Shown: positions 10,596 through 14,576 of the stretch, in pieces
Position numbering within the stretch: position 1 is the first letter of the stretch
Layout of the letters: each line of letters opens with the position of its first letter
Assembly (NCBI GenBank): GCA_038128225.1
Contig: JAYPJF010000002.1
Span: forward strand, 39,451 to 103,450
Source of the DNA: a bacterium
GTDB taxonomy: Bacteria; Patescibacteriota; Minisyncoccia; Phycocordibacterales; UBA2100
Length of the DNA: 64,000 nucleotides
Reading direction: 5' to 3'
Made by a program: the position numbers and the translations under genes
The notes under the pieces: model-generated
Databases searched by the model: none
Seen by the model: the letters and a program-made list of their open reading frames with translations, nothing else
Told to the model about the DNA's origin: nothing

Positions 10596-11087
10596 TCAAA
10601 TTCCGAAATACGCATCGAGCATTGTGAGAGTTTCTTCGATGCCCTCGTCGAGTGTATCGAAGATTGGTGCGTCGGGGTACCGCATGCGAAGCAGTCTCTT
10701 GATTGCTTCAGCGGCTTTGAGTGCATGACCACTGAGTTCGGTGGTGTCGATGACGATAACTGTTTTCCCCGGATGCTGCGCGAGCGTGATCGCTGCCTCA
10801 ACATACGAGTACGATGAATCCTCGTTTCCACCCTGTTTTGGGTCACCGATGTAGAACACATAGTGCGTTGCGTGCTCCTTTGCTTTATTTTCCTCAATCT
10901 CACGTTCCGCACCCCATTGACCAGGATTTACCTGTGGATTAAAAAAGTAACTAGAAAGTATGCCAGCCTCGGTCATCTCATCGAGAAACAGCAAGCGCCA
11001 GTAGTTGTTCCCGCACGTTCCTGCGAGGAAAACGAGCGGTTCTTTCCTCTTGCGACCGAAAAGTCCCTTCAGCATTGTGATCTCCAT
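10596..11087 (-). CDS. Nucleoside 2-deoxyribosyltransferase-like (flavodoxin-fold) protein
   Basis: 163-aa ORF. LVFLAGTCGNNYW...YFFNPQ pattern and length are typical of the Nuc_deoxyribosyltransferase-like/DUF4406 fold. Family-level assignment only. Confidence 0.4.
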   Translation of the reverse strand: MEITMLKGLFGRKRKEPLVFLAGTCGNNYWRLLFLDEMTEAGILSSYFFNPQVNPGQWGAEREIEENKAKEHATHYVFYIGDPKQGGNEDSSYSYVEAAITLAQHPGKTVIVIDTTELSGHALKAAEAIKRLLRMRYPDAPIFDTLDEGIEETLTMLDAYFGI

Positions 11088-11126
11088 GACTGATATTCCG
11101 GCAGCATTCTACAATTGGTGTTCTTT

Positions 11127-11154
11127 TTGTCAAAGTTCGATAAATCTGTATACT
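11127..11154 (+). promoter_or_regulatory. Sigma70-like promoter for tRNA-Gln
   Basis: TTGTCA -16 nt- TATACT, ending 8 nt before the tRNA 5' end. Confidence 0.5.
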
Positions 11155-11162
11155 GGGCCCAT

Positions 11163-11236
11163 TGCCGGATCGTCTAATGGTAGGACAGCAGCCTTTGAAG
11201 CTGTTTATCTTGGTTCGAATCCAAGTCCGGCAGCCA
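11163..11236 (+). tRNA. tRNA-Gln (anticodon UUG), CCA encoded
   Basis: Manual cloverleaf: acceptor TGCCGGA/TCCGGCA, D-arm GTCT-AATGGTA-GGAC, anticodon stem GCAGC/GCTGT with loop CTTTGAA (U33, UUG, A37), T-arm CTTGG-TTCGAAT-CCAAG, discriminator G, CCA. Confidence 0.85.
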
Positions 11237-11266
11237 GTTTGAGATAGGTTCGGACTCCGAGGAGCA
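11231..11266 (+). repeat. 36-bp direct repeat copy 1 (att-like), overlapping the tRNA-Gln 3' end
   Basis: CAGCCAGTTTGAGATAGGTTCGGACTCCGAGGAGCA. Matches 12631-12666 except for one C/T difference (35/36). Confidence 0.75.
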
Positions 11267-11301
11267 TCCTATTTATATAGTTTTTAAAAAGTAATAAAAT
11301 T

Positions 11302-11490
11302 ATGGATATGCAAAATTTATCATGGATATTTGATGGAATTGGCACAGCGGGAGTAACTTTCGTACTCGGCTTACTGGTCGGTGGTACTGCTGGTTATAAA
11401 ATTGCGATCAGGAAAACTATAAAACAAAAGCAAAAAGCTGGCGATAATTCTAGTCAGTTCCAGATCGGTGAGATTAAAAATGACCGATAA
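11302..11490 (+). CDS. 62-aa single-TM peptide, probably the detached N-terminus of the downstream gene
   Basis: MDMQNLSWIFDGIGTAGVTFVLGLLVGGTAGYKIAIRK... has a TM helix. The C-terminal KQKQKAGDNSSQFQIGE duplicates the N-terminal motif KQTQKAGDNSQLIQAG of the next ORF. Confidence 0.4.
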   Translation: MDMQNLSWIFDGIGTAGVTFVLGLLVGGTAGYKIAIRKTIKQKQKAGDNSSQFQIGEIKNDR

Positions 11491-11539
11491 ACAGACACAA
11501 AAAGCTGGCGACAATTCTCAACTTATCCAAGCAGGGACT
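11421..11539 (+). repeat. Diverged tandem duplication (about 51 bp units, 67-bp period) spanning the junction of the two cassette-1 ORFs
   Basis: The core CAAAAAGCTGGCGA(T/C)AATTCT occurs at 11431-11451 and 11498-11518. The 67-bp offset is not a multiple of 3, so the reading frame changes by +1. Confidence 0.7.
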
Positions 11540-12535
11540 GTTATTGTTGGTATTGATGAAAAAAGAGCACGCGAAATTGTTGATGAGAAATTAAATTCGG
11601 TCTTAAAGAGTTTTACGGCAGAAGCAACGGAAGAAGCAAATAAACGAAATAGGCTTTTCGAAGACTCACTCATTCCAAGAATGATTAAAGAAAATGCTCT
11701 GTCGGCTTTTTCAGACCCTTCATTTCAAATGCTACTTATTGAAGCACAAAAAAGAGCAGCTTCAACCGAAAGAAAAGAGGATTATGATTTACTTTCAGAA
11801 TTGATGGTTCATCGTTTTGAAAAAGGTTCTAATAGGACTATTAGGGCAGGTATTTCCAGAGCAGTTGAGATTGTGGATCAAATCTCAGATGAAGCACTGC
11901 TTGCAATAACTGTCTTTCATTCGGTTGCACAGTTTGTACCTGTTACAGGTAATATGTCAGATGGCTTACAGGTCTTAGATGGTTTATTTAGTAAGGTTAT
12001 TTATGGCACTTTACCCACAAATGATAGTTGGCTTGATCATCTAGATATTCTAGATGCTATAAGAGTAACTACCTTTGGAAGTACTAAGTTATTGGAAGAC
12101 TATTGGTATGAACAATTTGATGGATATGTAAAAAATGGAATTGAAGAAAATCACGAAAAACATACCGAAGCAAAAGAGTTGCTAGTAAAAGCTCGTCTCG
12201 ACCAAAACTCTTTGGTGAAAAATCCATTTAATGAAAAATATGTAAAACTTTTAGTATTAAACAAACGCCGAATACCAAAGCTTACTTTTGTAAGTGGTCA
12301 CTCGATCACTGATGATGAAAAAGATGCTCTTGAAAAGATATACGACTTATATGATGGCACTTCAATGTCTAAAGAAGATTTTATTAAAGAAATAGAAAAA
12401 TACCCTAATCTTAAAAAACTTCGGGAATGGTGGAATAAGTTGAACAAACAATCAATTCAAATTACCTCTGTTGGTAGAGTCTTGGCTCATTCTAACGCTC
12501 AACGAGTCGATAAAACTCTACCGCCGCTCGATTAA
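11480..12535 (+). CDS. Hypothetical 352-aa protein (alternative GTG start at 11468); possibly an LPO_1073/Vpar_1526-like family member, low confidence
   Basis: Long ORF in low-GC DNA. N-terminal QKAGDNSQLIQAGTVIVG motif and C-terminal IQITSVGRVLAHSNAQ motif. I vaguely recall similar end motifs from an uncharacterised family seen in mobile or defence contexts, but cannot confirm this without a search. Confidence 0.55.
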   Translation: MTDKQTQKAGDNSQLIQAGTVIVGIDEKRAREIVDEKLNSVLKSFTAEATEEANKRNRLFEDSLIPRMIKENALSAFSDPSFQMLLIEAQKRAASTERKEDYDLLSELMVHRFEKGSNRTIRAGISRAVEIVDQISDEALLAITVFHSVAQFVPVTGNMSDGLQVLDGLFSKVIYGTLPTNDSWLDHLDILDAIRVTTFGSTKLLEDYWYEQFDGYVKNGIEENHEKHTEAKELLVKARLDQNSLVKNPFNEKYVKLLVLNKRRIPKLTFVSGHSITDDEKDALEKIYDLYDGTSMSKEDFIKEIEKYPNLKKLREWWNKLNKQSIQITSVGRVLAHSNAQRVDKTLPPLD

Positions 12536-12543
12536 AAATTGTT

Positions 12544-12607
12544 ATTCCGAGGAGCGTCGAAATGGTAGACTAAAAAGCGTCAGGAAAGCCTTGTAGGGCT
12601 TGATGGG
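12544..12607 (+). repeat. 63-bp element-associated repeat, copy A
   Basis: ATTCCGAGGAGCGTCGAAATGGTAGACTAAAAAGCGTCAGGAAAGCCTTGTAGGGCTTGATGG. Repeated at 12958-13020 with about 90% identity. Confidence 0.7.
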
Positions 12608-12630
12608 TAAATTTACGAGACCGAAGAGAC

Positions 12631-12666
12631 CAGCCAGTTTGAGATAGGTTCGGATTCCGAGGAGCA
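12631..12666 (+). repeat. 36-bp direct repeat copy 2 (att-like), preceded by a degenerate copy of the tRNA 3' acceptor/T-arm
   Basis: CAGCCAGTTTGAGATAGGTTCGGATTCCGAGGAGCA. The upstream CCGAAGAGACCAGCCA resembles the tRNA sequence CCAAGTCCGGCAGCCA. Confidence 0.75.
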
Positions 12667-12711
12667 GAGGAAAAGTGATATATTGCGGCCACTTTTGTTT
12701 ATATTCTACCT

Positions 12712-12930
12712 ATGAGTAAATATGATCCACTGTGGAAGTTCATTCGAAGGAAAGGCAGCCCATCACTCACGCTGACGTTCGACGAAATACATAAGATTGC
12801 AGGAGTCAAATTGGATCATTCGTTTCTGAACTACAAAAAGGAGTTGCTTGAATATGGGTATCAAGTCGGGAAGATTTCTTTGAAAAAACATACAGTACTA
12901 TTCTCTGTGGCAAAGAAGCAAAGAAAATAA
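12712..12930 (+). CDS. Hypothetical 72-aa protein
   Basis: MSKYDPLWKFIRRKGSPSLTLTFDEIHKIAGVKLDHSFLNYKKELLEYGYQVGKISLKKHTVLFSV. A small alpha/beta protein that may be a standalone copy of a domain seen at N-termini of larger accessory proteins. Family not identified. Confidence 0.45.
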   Translation: MSKYDPLWKFIRRKGSPSLTLTFDEIHKIAGVKLDHSFLNYKKELLEYGYQVGKISLKKHTVLFSVAKKQRK

Positions 12931-12957
12931 TTGAGGGGTTAATGTCGCATTTTGATC

Positions 12958-13020
12958 ATTCCGAGGAGCGTCGAAATGGTAGACTAAAAAGCGTCAGAGA
13001 AACCTTGCGGGGCTTTATGG
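12958..13020 (+). repeat. 63-bp element-associated repeat, copy B
   Basis: ATTCCGAGGAGCGTCGAAATGGTAGACTAAAAAGCGTCAGAGAAACCTTGCGGGGCTTTATGG. Confidence 0.7.
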
Positions 13021-13112
13021 AGATTTATCCGAATCCGAAGAGGCCAGCTGGCTAAAAATCTAAGCGATGTGATCGTCTTGGGTGTTCAGTTACTCGAAGT
13101 AATGATAGGCGT

Positions 13113-14576
13113 ATGGGGAAAGAAGAAGCACTAATCCGATTCGAAGATGTTTCGTTTGAATACAGTTCTACAAAACCAATACTCCACGAGGTAAATTTTG
13201 CGGTACGCCGTGGCATGAAGTTGGCCATCATGGGCCAGAACGGCGCCGGAAAGAGCACCATCTTGTCTTTAATTACTGGCGAACACATGCCTGAGTCGGG
13301 ATCGATTCATACACAGTCGCACCTTTTGATAGCAACTGCAAAGCAAGTGATACCGCGCGATCAGTTAGACCTTACGGTCCGAGAGTTTTTTGAAAAATGC
13401 TTTGTCGAAAAAATATACAATATTGATCCGCGTATCAACGAAGTGTTAGACATCGTGCATCTGACAGCACCGCACGATCGCATTGTCCGGTCATTTTCGG
13501 GTGGCCAGCAGGCTCGACTTTTGCTTGCCTCGGCATTGATCCAAGACCCCGACCTTCTTCTGCTTGATGAGCCGACAAATAACCTCGATGCGGCCGGTGT
13601 CGAACATCTCACAAAGTTTCTCGTCGAGTACACCAAGACCGTCATAGTTATTTCGCACGATACGGAATTTTTGAACGCGTTTACGCACGGCGTGTTGTAT
13701 CTCGACGTTCACACGCGACAAGTGGAGCGGTATCCCGGCAATTACCACACGGTTCTCCGGCACATCGCTGCACGCATCGAAACAGAAAACCGCAAGAACG
13801 CTCAACTCGCTAAAGAGATCCAAGCAAACAAAGACAAAGCAAACTTTTTCGCACAGAAAGGTGGCAAGATGCGCTTGGTCGCAAAGAAAATGCGTACCAA
13901 GGCGGAGGAGATGGAAGAGGAAAAAGTGAATGTTAAAAAAGAAGATCGAACGATCCGTGCATTCACAATTCCGGTGCAGGAAGATCTACCAATCGAAATC
14001 GTCAGAATCAGCTCAGTGACAGTGATTAAGGACCACACTCCGAGGCATAAAAAAGTCGTGCTGCGACTGAAAAAAAACCAACACCTGCTCCTCAAAGGTC
14101 CGAACGGTATCGGGAAATCTACCTTGTTACAATCGATTGTCGATCGTACTGCGCGAGGCGTGACGGTGCCGGGTGAAGTGCGGGTCGGCTACTATCGTCA
14201 GGATTTTTCGACACTTGATTTCGAAATGACTGTTTTTGAATCACTCATGTCGGTACAGAAAGTCAAAAACGAAGAAGCGATGCGCGCAACTGCCGCAGGG
14301 CTCCTCCTTACTGCGGATATCATGCAGGCGAAAGTGGGAAACCTCTCGGAAGGTCAAAAAGGACTCTTGTCATTCGCGCGACTTATTATTGAACGTCCCG
14401 GCCTTCTTATTCTCGACGAACCAACCAACCATATCAATTTTCGCCACGTTCCTGTCATCGCGAAAGCACTCGATACTTATCAGGGTGCCTTGATTCTCGT
14501 CTCACACGTTCCAGAGTTTGTAGCACAGATTCGCATCGACGAAACTCTTGATTTGGGAAAGCTGGTGTCACAATGA
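13113..14576 (+). CDS. ABC-F family ATPase (two tandem ABC domains, no TMD), short form
   Basis: Two Walker A motifs (GQNGAGKST, GPNGIGKST), two ABC signature motifs (FSGGQQARL, LSEGQKGLL) and two Walker B motifs (LLLLDEPTN, LLILDEPTN), separated by a charged linker. Confidence 0.85.
   Translation: MGKEEALIRFEDVSFEYSSTKPILHEVNFAVRRGMKLAIMGQNGAGKSTILSLITGEHMPESGSIHTQSHLLIATAKQVIPRDQLDLTVREFFEKCFVEKIYNIDPRINEVLDIVHLTAPHDRIVRSFSGGQQARLLLASALIQDPDLLLLDEPTNNLDAAGVEHLTKFLVEYTKTVIVISHDTEFLNAFTHGVLYLDVHTRQVERYPGNYHTVLRHIAARIETENRKNAQLAKEIQANKDKANFFAQKGGKMRLVAKKMRTKAEEMEEEKVNVKKEDRTIRAFTIPVQEDLPIEIVRISSVTVIKDHTPRHKKVVLRLKKNQHLLLKGPNGIGKSTLLQSIVDRTARGVTVPGEVRVGYYRQDFSTLDFEMTVFESLMSVQKVKNEEAMRATAAGLLLTADIMQAKVGNLSEGQKGLLSFARLIIERPGLLILDEPTNHINFRHVPVIAKALDTYQGALILVSHVPEFVAQIRIDETLDLGKLVSQ

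Follow-up and report, generated by a model that had tools for sequence, protein, structure and literature searches.

The locus and its two genes

We analysed a stretch of 64,000 nucleotides (the window) of contig JAYPJF010000002.1, from a bacterium of the Patescibacteriota (assembly GCA_038128225.1), in which two overlapping genes on the forward strand make up a conserved, mobile two-gene membrane module that may have a role in phage defence. The first gene (11302..11490, +; taken from the list of open reading frames, ORFs) encodes a 62-aa single-pass membrane peptide that ends in IKNDR and a stop codon. The second, hereafter the large gene (11480..12535, +), encodes a protein of the LPO_1073/Vpar_1526 family, long subfamily, in which an N-terminal motif is followed by a helical domain (residues 27-173) and, towards the C-terminus, by an alpha/beta part. 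The two genes share 11 nt, ATGACCGATAA, running from the start codon of the large gene to the stop codon of the peptide gene (11480..11490, +), and the large gene is read in the +1 frame relative to the peptide gene. An earlier note on this DNA (the original prediction) had described the frame shift and the IKNDR stop at the junction, both of which can be read directly in the ORFs, and had given the large ORF 352 residues; it is 351 aa long from the ATG at 11480, the start used by homologues (M-T/A-D/G/N-K-Q...), and 355 aa long from an upstream GTG.

The peptide has an acidic N-terminus (net charge -2), one hydrophobic transmembrane (TM) helix (residues about 13-32; codons 11338..11397, +) and a basic tail (+5) ending in the KQKQKAGDNSSQFQIG motif. 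Since the tail carries a charge of +5 against -2 before the TM helix, the positive-inside rule predicts an N-terminus outside the cell and a tail in the cytoplasm. Within the helix, G23, G27, G28 and G31 form a GxxxGGxxG zipper (11368-11394). Inspection of the sequence also revealed a Shine-Dalgarno (SD)-like GGTGAG inside the peptide gene (11467..11472, +), 7 nt ahead of the ATG of the large gene. In an independent assembly of Sequence Read Archive data (L001), both proteins are identical in sequence to those of the window and their genes have the same 11-nt overlap, so that the arrangement is no assembly artefact.

Conservation of the two-gene arrangement

The locus was compared with 25 metagenome loci (34-74% identity) and then with 80 genome loci from Patescibacteria, Bacteroidota, Gammaproteobacteria, Epsilonproteobacteria, Firmicutes, Verrucomicrobia, Vampirovibrio and Fibrobacter. 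Immediately ahead of the large gene, 19 of 22 metagenome loci and about 65 of the 80 genome loci carry a gene for a small membrane peptide. Across 84 split loci from at least eight phyla, with protein identities of 34-91%, (i) the +1 frame relation holds in 82, (ii) the overlap is exactly 11 nt in 53, or in about 57 if GTG starts are counted, (iii) the remaining overlaps measure 8, 14, 17, 23, 26 or 32 nt, the length being 2 mod 3 in all loci but two, and (iv) the closest relatives (65-91% identity) are, every one, split as in the window. The ATG is invariant in the set with the 11-nt overlap, and 39 of 46 such loci carry an SD-like purine-rich tetramer at most 14 nt before it.

The peptide is a family of its own, with 82 clusters whose members all measure 56-97 aa. 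Differences between homologues of the peptide gene number 577, 258 and 1517 at codon positions 1, 2 and 3, and this third-position excess shows it to be a real, translated gene under purifying selection. Two classes can be told apart: class A (MEWIFDGIGTA..T...GLL.GG..GY) occurs in Patescibacteria, Bacteroidota and Firmicutes, and class B (MEWI.ENKDWLFSG.AIA.P.AIIGW) in Proteobacteria. In both, the tail ends with the motif that opens the partner protein. The glycine zipper is invariant in the 14 class-A peptides compared and may well be an oligomerisation motif; TM zippers of the GxxxGGxxG type are found in oligomerising and pore-forming peptides. At one locus (L112, 6001-6177), a peptide gene of the type found in Bacteroidales (P0164) stands alone beside a DDE transposase, no large gene being called next to it, from which it follows that the peptide gene can persist on its own. 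At another (L022, 523-630), the peptide gene is apparently 5'-truncated behind an ORF resembling an insertion sequence (IS) transposase of the rve type, and the large gene is intact.

In the window, as in the module at large, a TM peptide is encoded upstream, its tail repeats the motif of the partner, its stop codon falls inside the first codons of the partner and the frame relation is +1. By this comparison the window locus is shown to be an intact and typical copy of a conserved two-gene module, and the programmed two-part arrangement that the original prediction had offered as one of two options fits the conserved split, frame and overlap. The 11-nt overlap in a fixed +1 frame, together with the SD-like sequence inside the first gene, makes it most likely that the two genes are translationally coupled and made together. 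With other translationally coupled overlapping pairs the module shares the stop/start overlap and the SD inside the upstream gene, but the overlap in the window is 11 nt and not the common 1 or 4 nt.

The same junction could be read as a site of programmed +1 ribosomal frameshifting or of transcriptional slippage, which would add a fused, membrane-anchored form of about 410 aa. Such a reading would explain the +1 relation in 82 of 84 loci and finds further support in natural in-frame fusions that keep both copies of the motif (P0207, P0256), in a run of five A just ahead of the ATG in the window and its close relatives (TTAAAAATG) and in one in-frame fusion at a run of seven A (L049). The +1 relation, however, also follows from the position of the stop codon, which falls inside [DNS]-K codons conserved in the large gene. 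The overlap ranges from 8 to 32 nt, and a slippery sequence is not conserved at the junction, most Bacteroidota loci having GATTATAATGGC. The conserved ATG and SD-like element fit independent initiation, and L049 is a metagenome-assembled genome (MAG) whose isolate name suggests long-read assembly, where a homopolymer error is possible. We therefore consider frameshifting very unlikely and retain independent initiation of two coupled genes.

The repeated junction motif

A repeat search found that nucleotides 11422..11451 (+), in the codons of the peptide tail (KQKQKAGDNS), and 11489..11518 (+), in those of the N-terminus of the large protein (KQTQKAGDNS), are identical at 26 of 30 positions and lie 67 nt apart; both encode KQxQKAGDNS. 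As the 64-kb window contains no second pair of 30-mers that agree at 26 or more positions when offset by 30-200 nt, the repeat is not due to chance. The original prediction had placed here a repeated segment of about 51 bp and a 67-bp tandem duplication that split one ancestral gene. Its repeat and its 67-nt spacing stand, at a length of 30 nt; beyond it, agreement within the proposed 67-nt unit drops to 12 of 37 positions, as expected by chance, and Tandem Repeats Finder, run on 11200-12700, called no 67-nt period. What exists is a 30-nt coding motif repeated at 67-nt spacing, and a 67-bp tandem duplication is not demonstrable. Removing one copy (11431-11497) does yield, as had been foreseen, a single open in-frame ORF of 388 aa in which the TM helix is fused to the large ORF.

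The motif that the peptide, in its tail, shares with the start of its partner protein is Q-K-[AG]-G-D-N-S-x-Q-x-Q. Amino-acid identity between the two copies amounts to 0.692 within loci against 0.590 between loci, a value reached in none of 5000 permutations, and the excess persists inside class A and class B separately. The consensus of the two copies shifts jointly from one class to the other (QKAGDNSSQIQ / QKAGDNSQQLQ in class A, QKGGDNSTNIQ / QKGGDGSTNIQ in class B), and in a few loci, such as L007 and L069, the copies are identical at the DNA level. The higher identity within loci argues that the two copies evolve in concert, which may come about by gene conversion, by shared functional constraint or by both. 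In two Vibrio loci (L062, 3924-4055; L068, 3923-4051) the motif is likewise repeated at the DNA level, over 44-47 nt with 75-87% identity and at a spacing of 85 nt, the class-B counterpart of the 67-nt spacing in the window; around the module in these loci we saw the motif repeat alone and no integron-like repeat arrays.

Seven further loci (L075, L076, L078, L081, L084, L085 and L095) encode an upstream peptide of about 95-100 aa that itself holds two copies of the motif with an acidic, serine-rich spacer between them, which brings the number of copies per locus to three. They come mostly from Lachnospiraceae and related Firmicutes; L078 is a Bifidobacteriaceae record.

Natural fusions of the two proteins

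Homologues in which a TM segment and the large protein form a single ORF were found as a minority, and include a near match to the reconstructed fused protein. About 10 of the 80 genome loci, and 8 of the 150 best cluster representatives, have N-terminal extensions of at least 75 aa, in which two or four TM helices that bear no relationship to the peptide precede two copies of the motif; P0109, P0116, P0084, P0061, P0062 and P0090 are of this build. The class-A helix itself is fused to the large protein with two motif copies in P0207 (456 aa) and P0256 (446 aa), and with a single copy in P0334 (390 aa) and in a small clade of 402-aa proteins (P0322, P0355, P0358 and P0362). These single-copy fusions bear out the proposal of the original prediction that the peptide and the large protein belong together. 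P0334 is a singleton, and since its nearest relatives (46% identity) measure about 354 aa and have no TM part, it looks derived rather than ancestral.

As in other gene fission/fusion ('Rosetta stone') pairs, the two polypeptides are fused in some genomes, and these natural fusions argue for a joint action of peptide and large protein at the membrane, as two halves of one functional unit. Unlike in ordinary fissions, where this is not required, each half has retained a copy of the junction motif. Membrane attachment is shown to be constant across the family, whether by a separate peptide or by fusion, and the N-terminal membrane modules appear to be interchangeable. Most fused relatives keep two copies of the motif, so that its duplication and the fission of the gene are separable events. 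The split and fused forms are related by either fission or fusion.

With these data at hand we can weigh the second option of the original prediction, namely that a membrane-anchored protein of about 390 aa was recently broken by a 67-bp tandem duplication and that the locus is a pseudogene. The 388-aa ORF restored by the deletion and the natural proteins of 390 and 402 aa with the same architecture are what such an event would leave behind. Yet homologues are consistently two separate genes with the same split, frame and overlap, in 84 loci from many phyla and at 34-91% identity, an outcome that the prediction itself had named as speaking against it. The closest relatives of the window locus are split too, the peptide gene accumulates substitutions in the manner of a coding sequence, an independent assembly encodes both proteins with the same overlap, the repeat covers just 30 of the 67 nt (26/30, then 12/37), and the single-copy fusion P0334 looks derived, not ancestral. 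The comparative data thus refute a recent inactivation, a split by tandem duplication is not supported, and for annotation the small upstream ORF with its 11-nt overlap is to be treated as part of a real gene pair and not of a frameshifted pseudogene.

One genome locus, L049 (3828-4030; a Halarcobacter ebronensis MAG), is the sole one with a class-B peptide fused in frame to the large gene. Its junction holds the run of seven A, GTAAAAAAATG, and one A more would restore the usual split with an 8-nt overlap. Given this run and the isolate name, L049 may represent a homopolymer sequencing error; it may equally be a real fusion or a phase-variable site.

Family and predicted structure of the large protein

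The large protein matches the NCBIfam model NF045477 (LPO_1073/Vpar_1526) with 118.2 bits against a cutoff of 45 (E 4.6e-34), its residues 24-343 aligning to positions 1-246 of the 257 in the profile, and Pfam PF28206 ('Vpar_1526') is precomputed for P0001, the database protein identical to it. The family assignment that the original prediction had tentatively made was therefore right. PF28206 is carried by 1079 homologues, and a profile search of 1.84 billion representative proteins returned 1882 clusters at E<=1e-3 and 452 at E<=1e-30, so that the family comprises about 1,900 clusters when counted at 50% identity. It is a named family without a described function. In local Pfam-A neither protein of the window had a significant match, and in PHROGs the sole match was phrog_19542, of unknown function.

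The conserved blocks of the large protein are the N-terminal motif Q.[AG]G.NS..Q, the core DPSFQ/TER..DYDLLSEL and a C-terminal SVG..LA.SNAQR; the alignments from which they were drawn (A1, A2) took in P0072 and P0096, which NCBI and UniRef name LPO_1073/Vpar_1526. With this family the window protein shares the N-terminal Q-x-[AG]-G-x-N-S...Q, the helical core DPSFQ...EAQK..A..TER..DYDLLSELL.HR and the end ITSVG.VLAHSNAQR.D..LPPL. The canonical members are short (275-285 aa) and match NF045477 end to end; the window protein, in contrast, belongs to a long subfamily of about 350-380 aa with additional sequence in the C-terminal half relative to the profile.

In the AlphaFold2 model of the large protein (predicted local distance difference test score, pLDDT, 89; predicted template modelling score, pTM, 0.83), a helical domain of residues 27-173 is followed by an alpha/beta part of residues 183-343, of which residues about 183-257 (12026..12250, +) may form a winged-helix-like subdomain. 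Residues 1-22, which hold the motif, are disordered in the monomer (pLDDT about 35).

Three-gene arrays were seen in L015 (1934-4089), L106 (2952-5083) and L018; the first gene encodes a class-B-like TM peptide of 69 aa, the second a short-form paralogue of LPO_1073 (275-281 aa) and the third a long-form protein. Upstream of the array in L106 lies a gene for a 632-aa protein resembling an ATPase of the HATPase type.

Mobile settings of the module

In the window, the module is the content of the first of two cassettes in an islet that begins at the 3' end of a tRNA-Gln(UUG) gene (11163..11236, +; identified by ARAGORN, and scoring 64.9 bits with the Rfam tRNA model). A 36-nt direct repeat, composed of the last 6 nt of the tRNA and the 30 nt downstream and ending in the core TCCGAGGAGC, bounds cassette 1 on the left (11231..11266, +), and a copy 97% identical to it (12631..12666, +) forms the right bound of cassette 1 and the left bound of cassette 2. 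The core 10-mer TCCGAGGAGC occurs four times (11256, 12546, 12656 and 12960) against 0.1 expected, and a 91-nt repeat is present at 12544 and 12958 with 84% identity. The cassettes delimited by these repeats span 11267-12543 and 12667-12957. Across 11200-12600 the GC content is 0.32-0.38, compared with about 0.50 in the flanks. The islet thus combines the features of tRNA-integrated elements, as it starts where a tRNA gene ends, carries that 3' end again as a direct repeat at its opposite boundary and departs from its surroundings in GC content. Within 11237-13110 there is no ORF of the size of an integrase gene, the remainder of the window not having been searched for one; a scan of 11000-13300 with Rfam returned the tRNA alone, and the 91-nt repeats fold no better than shuffled sequence.

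Islets next to tRNA genes carry the module in several Patescibacteria. Close homologues also lie beside tRNA genes, namely tRNA-Gln in L003, a type-II tRNA in L014, tRNA-Leu in L027 and tRNA-Gly in L029 and L013. Among the neighbours of the module are ArdA, transposases, and candidates for type II and type IIG restriction-modification (R-M) systems or PDC. Type I R-M genes adjoin it in L120 (HsdR, 27 nt upstream of a fused form), in L107 and in L015, where a 417-aa upstream ORF is read as the specificity (S) subunit. A third gene is not conserved: the 150 nearest neighbours from 49 loci contained 134 Pfam families, none of which occurred more than twice. The copy found in Bacteroidales (peptide P0164; 38 member sequences on 433 contigs; L111 and L113-L118) travels with a 266-aa rRNA adenine methyltransferase of the erm type, and most of the L111 and L113-L118 contigs have IS66 and IS21 elements upstream; the module is apparently carried along by a resistance element of wide distribution. 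The distribution of the family is patchy over at least eight phyla, and identity between Patescibacteria and Proteobacteria is about 50%. These are the settings of mobile accessory DNA, and the module moves by horizontal transfer.

A relative in a prophage defence hotspot of E. coli

The short form of the module is represented in E. coli by WP_000687980, an 81-aa peptide with two TM helices, and WP_000490525, a 285-aa LPO_1073-family protein that begins MFSDKQKQQIGNNSYAIQAGNN. The pair sits in a P2-like prophage, in the gpA-gpQ hotspot, with gpA/DinI on one side and the portal gene on the other, and adjoins the validated defence system Rst_3HP; its neighbouring genes (Hp1-3) match Rst_3HP at E<1e-150. 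The gpA-gpQ interval of P2-like prophages was shown experimentally to be an anti-phage hotspot by Rousset et al. (2022; PMC9122126), who label the E. coli pair merely 'hypothetical' and whose tested system corresponding to Hp1-3 consists of three genes, has no clear predicted domain and protects against P1. Most of the pair is present in 6 of 5426 complete E. coli genomes, and a seventh has an 8% fragment only.

The E. coli pair resembles that of the window in that the tail of the membrane peptide, SQSVGDNSTAVQARGD, repeats the N-terminal motif of the next gene, KQKQQIGNNSYAIQAGNN, and in being a self-contained unit in a variable, horizontally acquired site. It differs in that its peptide has two TM helices and its genes lie 9 nt apart and do not overlap. 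The window protein shares 24% identity with the E. coli protein over 62% of its length, the latter being a member of the short subfamily.

Functional interpretation

The window copy is in itself ordinary, and it is the comparative picture that defines a widespread membrane module with an unusual duplicated junction motif. In this structural and genetic account we have high confidence. The conserved arrangement, the purifying selection, the co-evolving motifs and the fusions to membrane regions of one, two or four helices argue that the large protein works, in concert with the peptide, on the cytoplasmic side of the cell membrane; Vpar_1526 itself has been detected in membrane fractions of V. 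parvula (PMC5491611). The shared motif would join the two, either by motif-to-motif association or through a common binding partner; direct pairing of the motifs is put forward as a hypothesis. The whole may then constitute a self-contained accessory system of mobile DNA, most likely an anti-phage system that works by abortive infection or exclusion. An infection cue would be sensed by the large protein, which includes the winged-helix-like part, and the output acting on the membrane would come from the glycine-zipper peptide or, where the two are fused, from the TM region.

By analogy, Kiwa (KwaA/KwaB), RexA/RexB and abortive-infection (Abi) systems with TM effectors could be compared with such a module, as they too co-encode a membrane component and a cytoplasmic partner in variable regions, and the seeming interchangeability of its N-terminal TM parts would be a trait in common with many defence systems. 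Unlike Kiwa, RexA/RexB and the TM-effector Abi systems, it appears to have neither a match in PADLOC nor a catalytic or known sensor domain. To our knowledge, the shared junction motif has no described counterpart in these systems.

A defence function, which the original prediction had also proposed and which is deduced here from the setting in tRNA islets, next to type I R-M genes, among IS and erm elements and in the P2 hotspot, is nevertheless a tentative assignment that we place a little below the balance of probability, for several observations weigh against it. Neither the peptide, the large protein nor the ORF of cassette 2 matched PADLOC-DB v2.0 at E<=1, and neither the E. coli pair nor the short paralogue did so at E<=0.01. 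No catalytic domain was recognised in the module; for the large protein, Foldseek gave no significant match in PDB and BFVD, and a profile search of PDB sequences gave nothing below E 0.3. Many neighbours of the module are housekeeping genes, and the family has one record in the phage collection and two in the plasmid collection. A literature search found no functional test of family members, the motif strings nowhere and Vpar_1526 in an incidental proteomics mention only. As to the motif, the AlphaFold2 model of a natural two-copy fusion (P0109), a monomer computed from a shallow alignment, shows the linker with both copies as disordered (pLDDT 26-37) and without a hairpin, and the excess of within-locus identity at the DNA level may partly reflect genome-specific codon usage, to which the amino-acid signal is less exposed.

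Some of these points would suit an accessory or housekeeping membrane role outside conflict, for example in envelope or transport regulation, with the module carried in variable regions by chance. The unmatched defence models and the housekeeping neighbours agree with such a role, as does the expression of Vpar_1526 in an uninfected culture of Veillonella parvula, whose whole-cell, outer-membrane and surface fractions contained it (PMC5491611). It is harder to reconcile with a patchy occurrence over at least eight phyla at about 50% identity between Patescibacteria and Proteobacteria, with an E. coli pair confined to 6 of 5426 complete genomes and lying, where its context was inspected, in a prophage defence hotspot, or with the atypical GC content in the window and the interchangeable N-terminal membrane modules. 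We rate it as improbable, slightly more so than the next alternative.

A toxin-antitoxin or addiction module, with the glycine-zipper peptide as the toxin and the large protein neutralising it through the shared motif, would account for the compact, tightly coupled two-gene unit, its mobile, low-GC and IS-rich contexts and a conserved TM helix of the kind known from pore-forming peptides. Against it, a toxin is not usually joined covalently to its antitoxin, as the two proteins are in the fusions. The peptide gene persists alone beside an IS element in L112, and Pfam and NCBIfam scans matched no known toxin-antitoxin family. This reading, too, has a low probability, and it overlaps with abortive-infection defence instead of excluding it.

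The defence reading can be given a more specific form, in which the pair is a widespread, undescribed anti-phage system of the abortive-infection or exclusion type and a gene fission is held together by a duplicated, co-evolving 'sticky' motif, which would recruit the soluble sensor to the glycine-zipper peptide as a killing or blocking effector; this is somewhat more speculative, and we consider it rather unlikely as a whole. Were a defence function true, it would add a new system, present also in the minimal genomes of Patescibacteria (candidate phyla radiation, CPR), and an unusually clean gene fission whose halves are linked by a duplicated motif; if not, the window holds an ordinary accessory gene pair in a tRNA islet. 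Either way, a named but unstudied family becomes a testable two-component membrane module with fused and split forms and a co-evolving junction motif, for which the pair from the P2 prophage defence hotspot of E. coli offers a tractable representative.

Further features of the islet

A promoter-like element (TTTATA, 17 nt, then TAAAAT or TATGAT) is found at the start of both cassette ORFs (11272-11300 and 12698-12726, +), in a region where a scan for promoters and terminators gave a number of sites not above the shuffled expectation. In cassette 1 the element stops 1 nt short of the ATG of the peptide gene, which would imply a leaderless mRNA or one with a very short leader. In cassette 2 it runs into the start codon (12712) of a 72-aa ORF (MSKYDPLWKFIRRKGSPSLTLTFDEIHKIAG..., 12712-12930, +), which has a weak match to Pfam DUF7662 (E 0.066) and none in PADLOC or NCBIfam. 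On the other side of the islet, a 163-aa ORF (10596-11087, -) located 76 nt before the tRNA gene scores 28.1 bits with PF15891 (nucleoside 2-deoxyribosyltransferase-like), for which the cutoff is 30.

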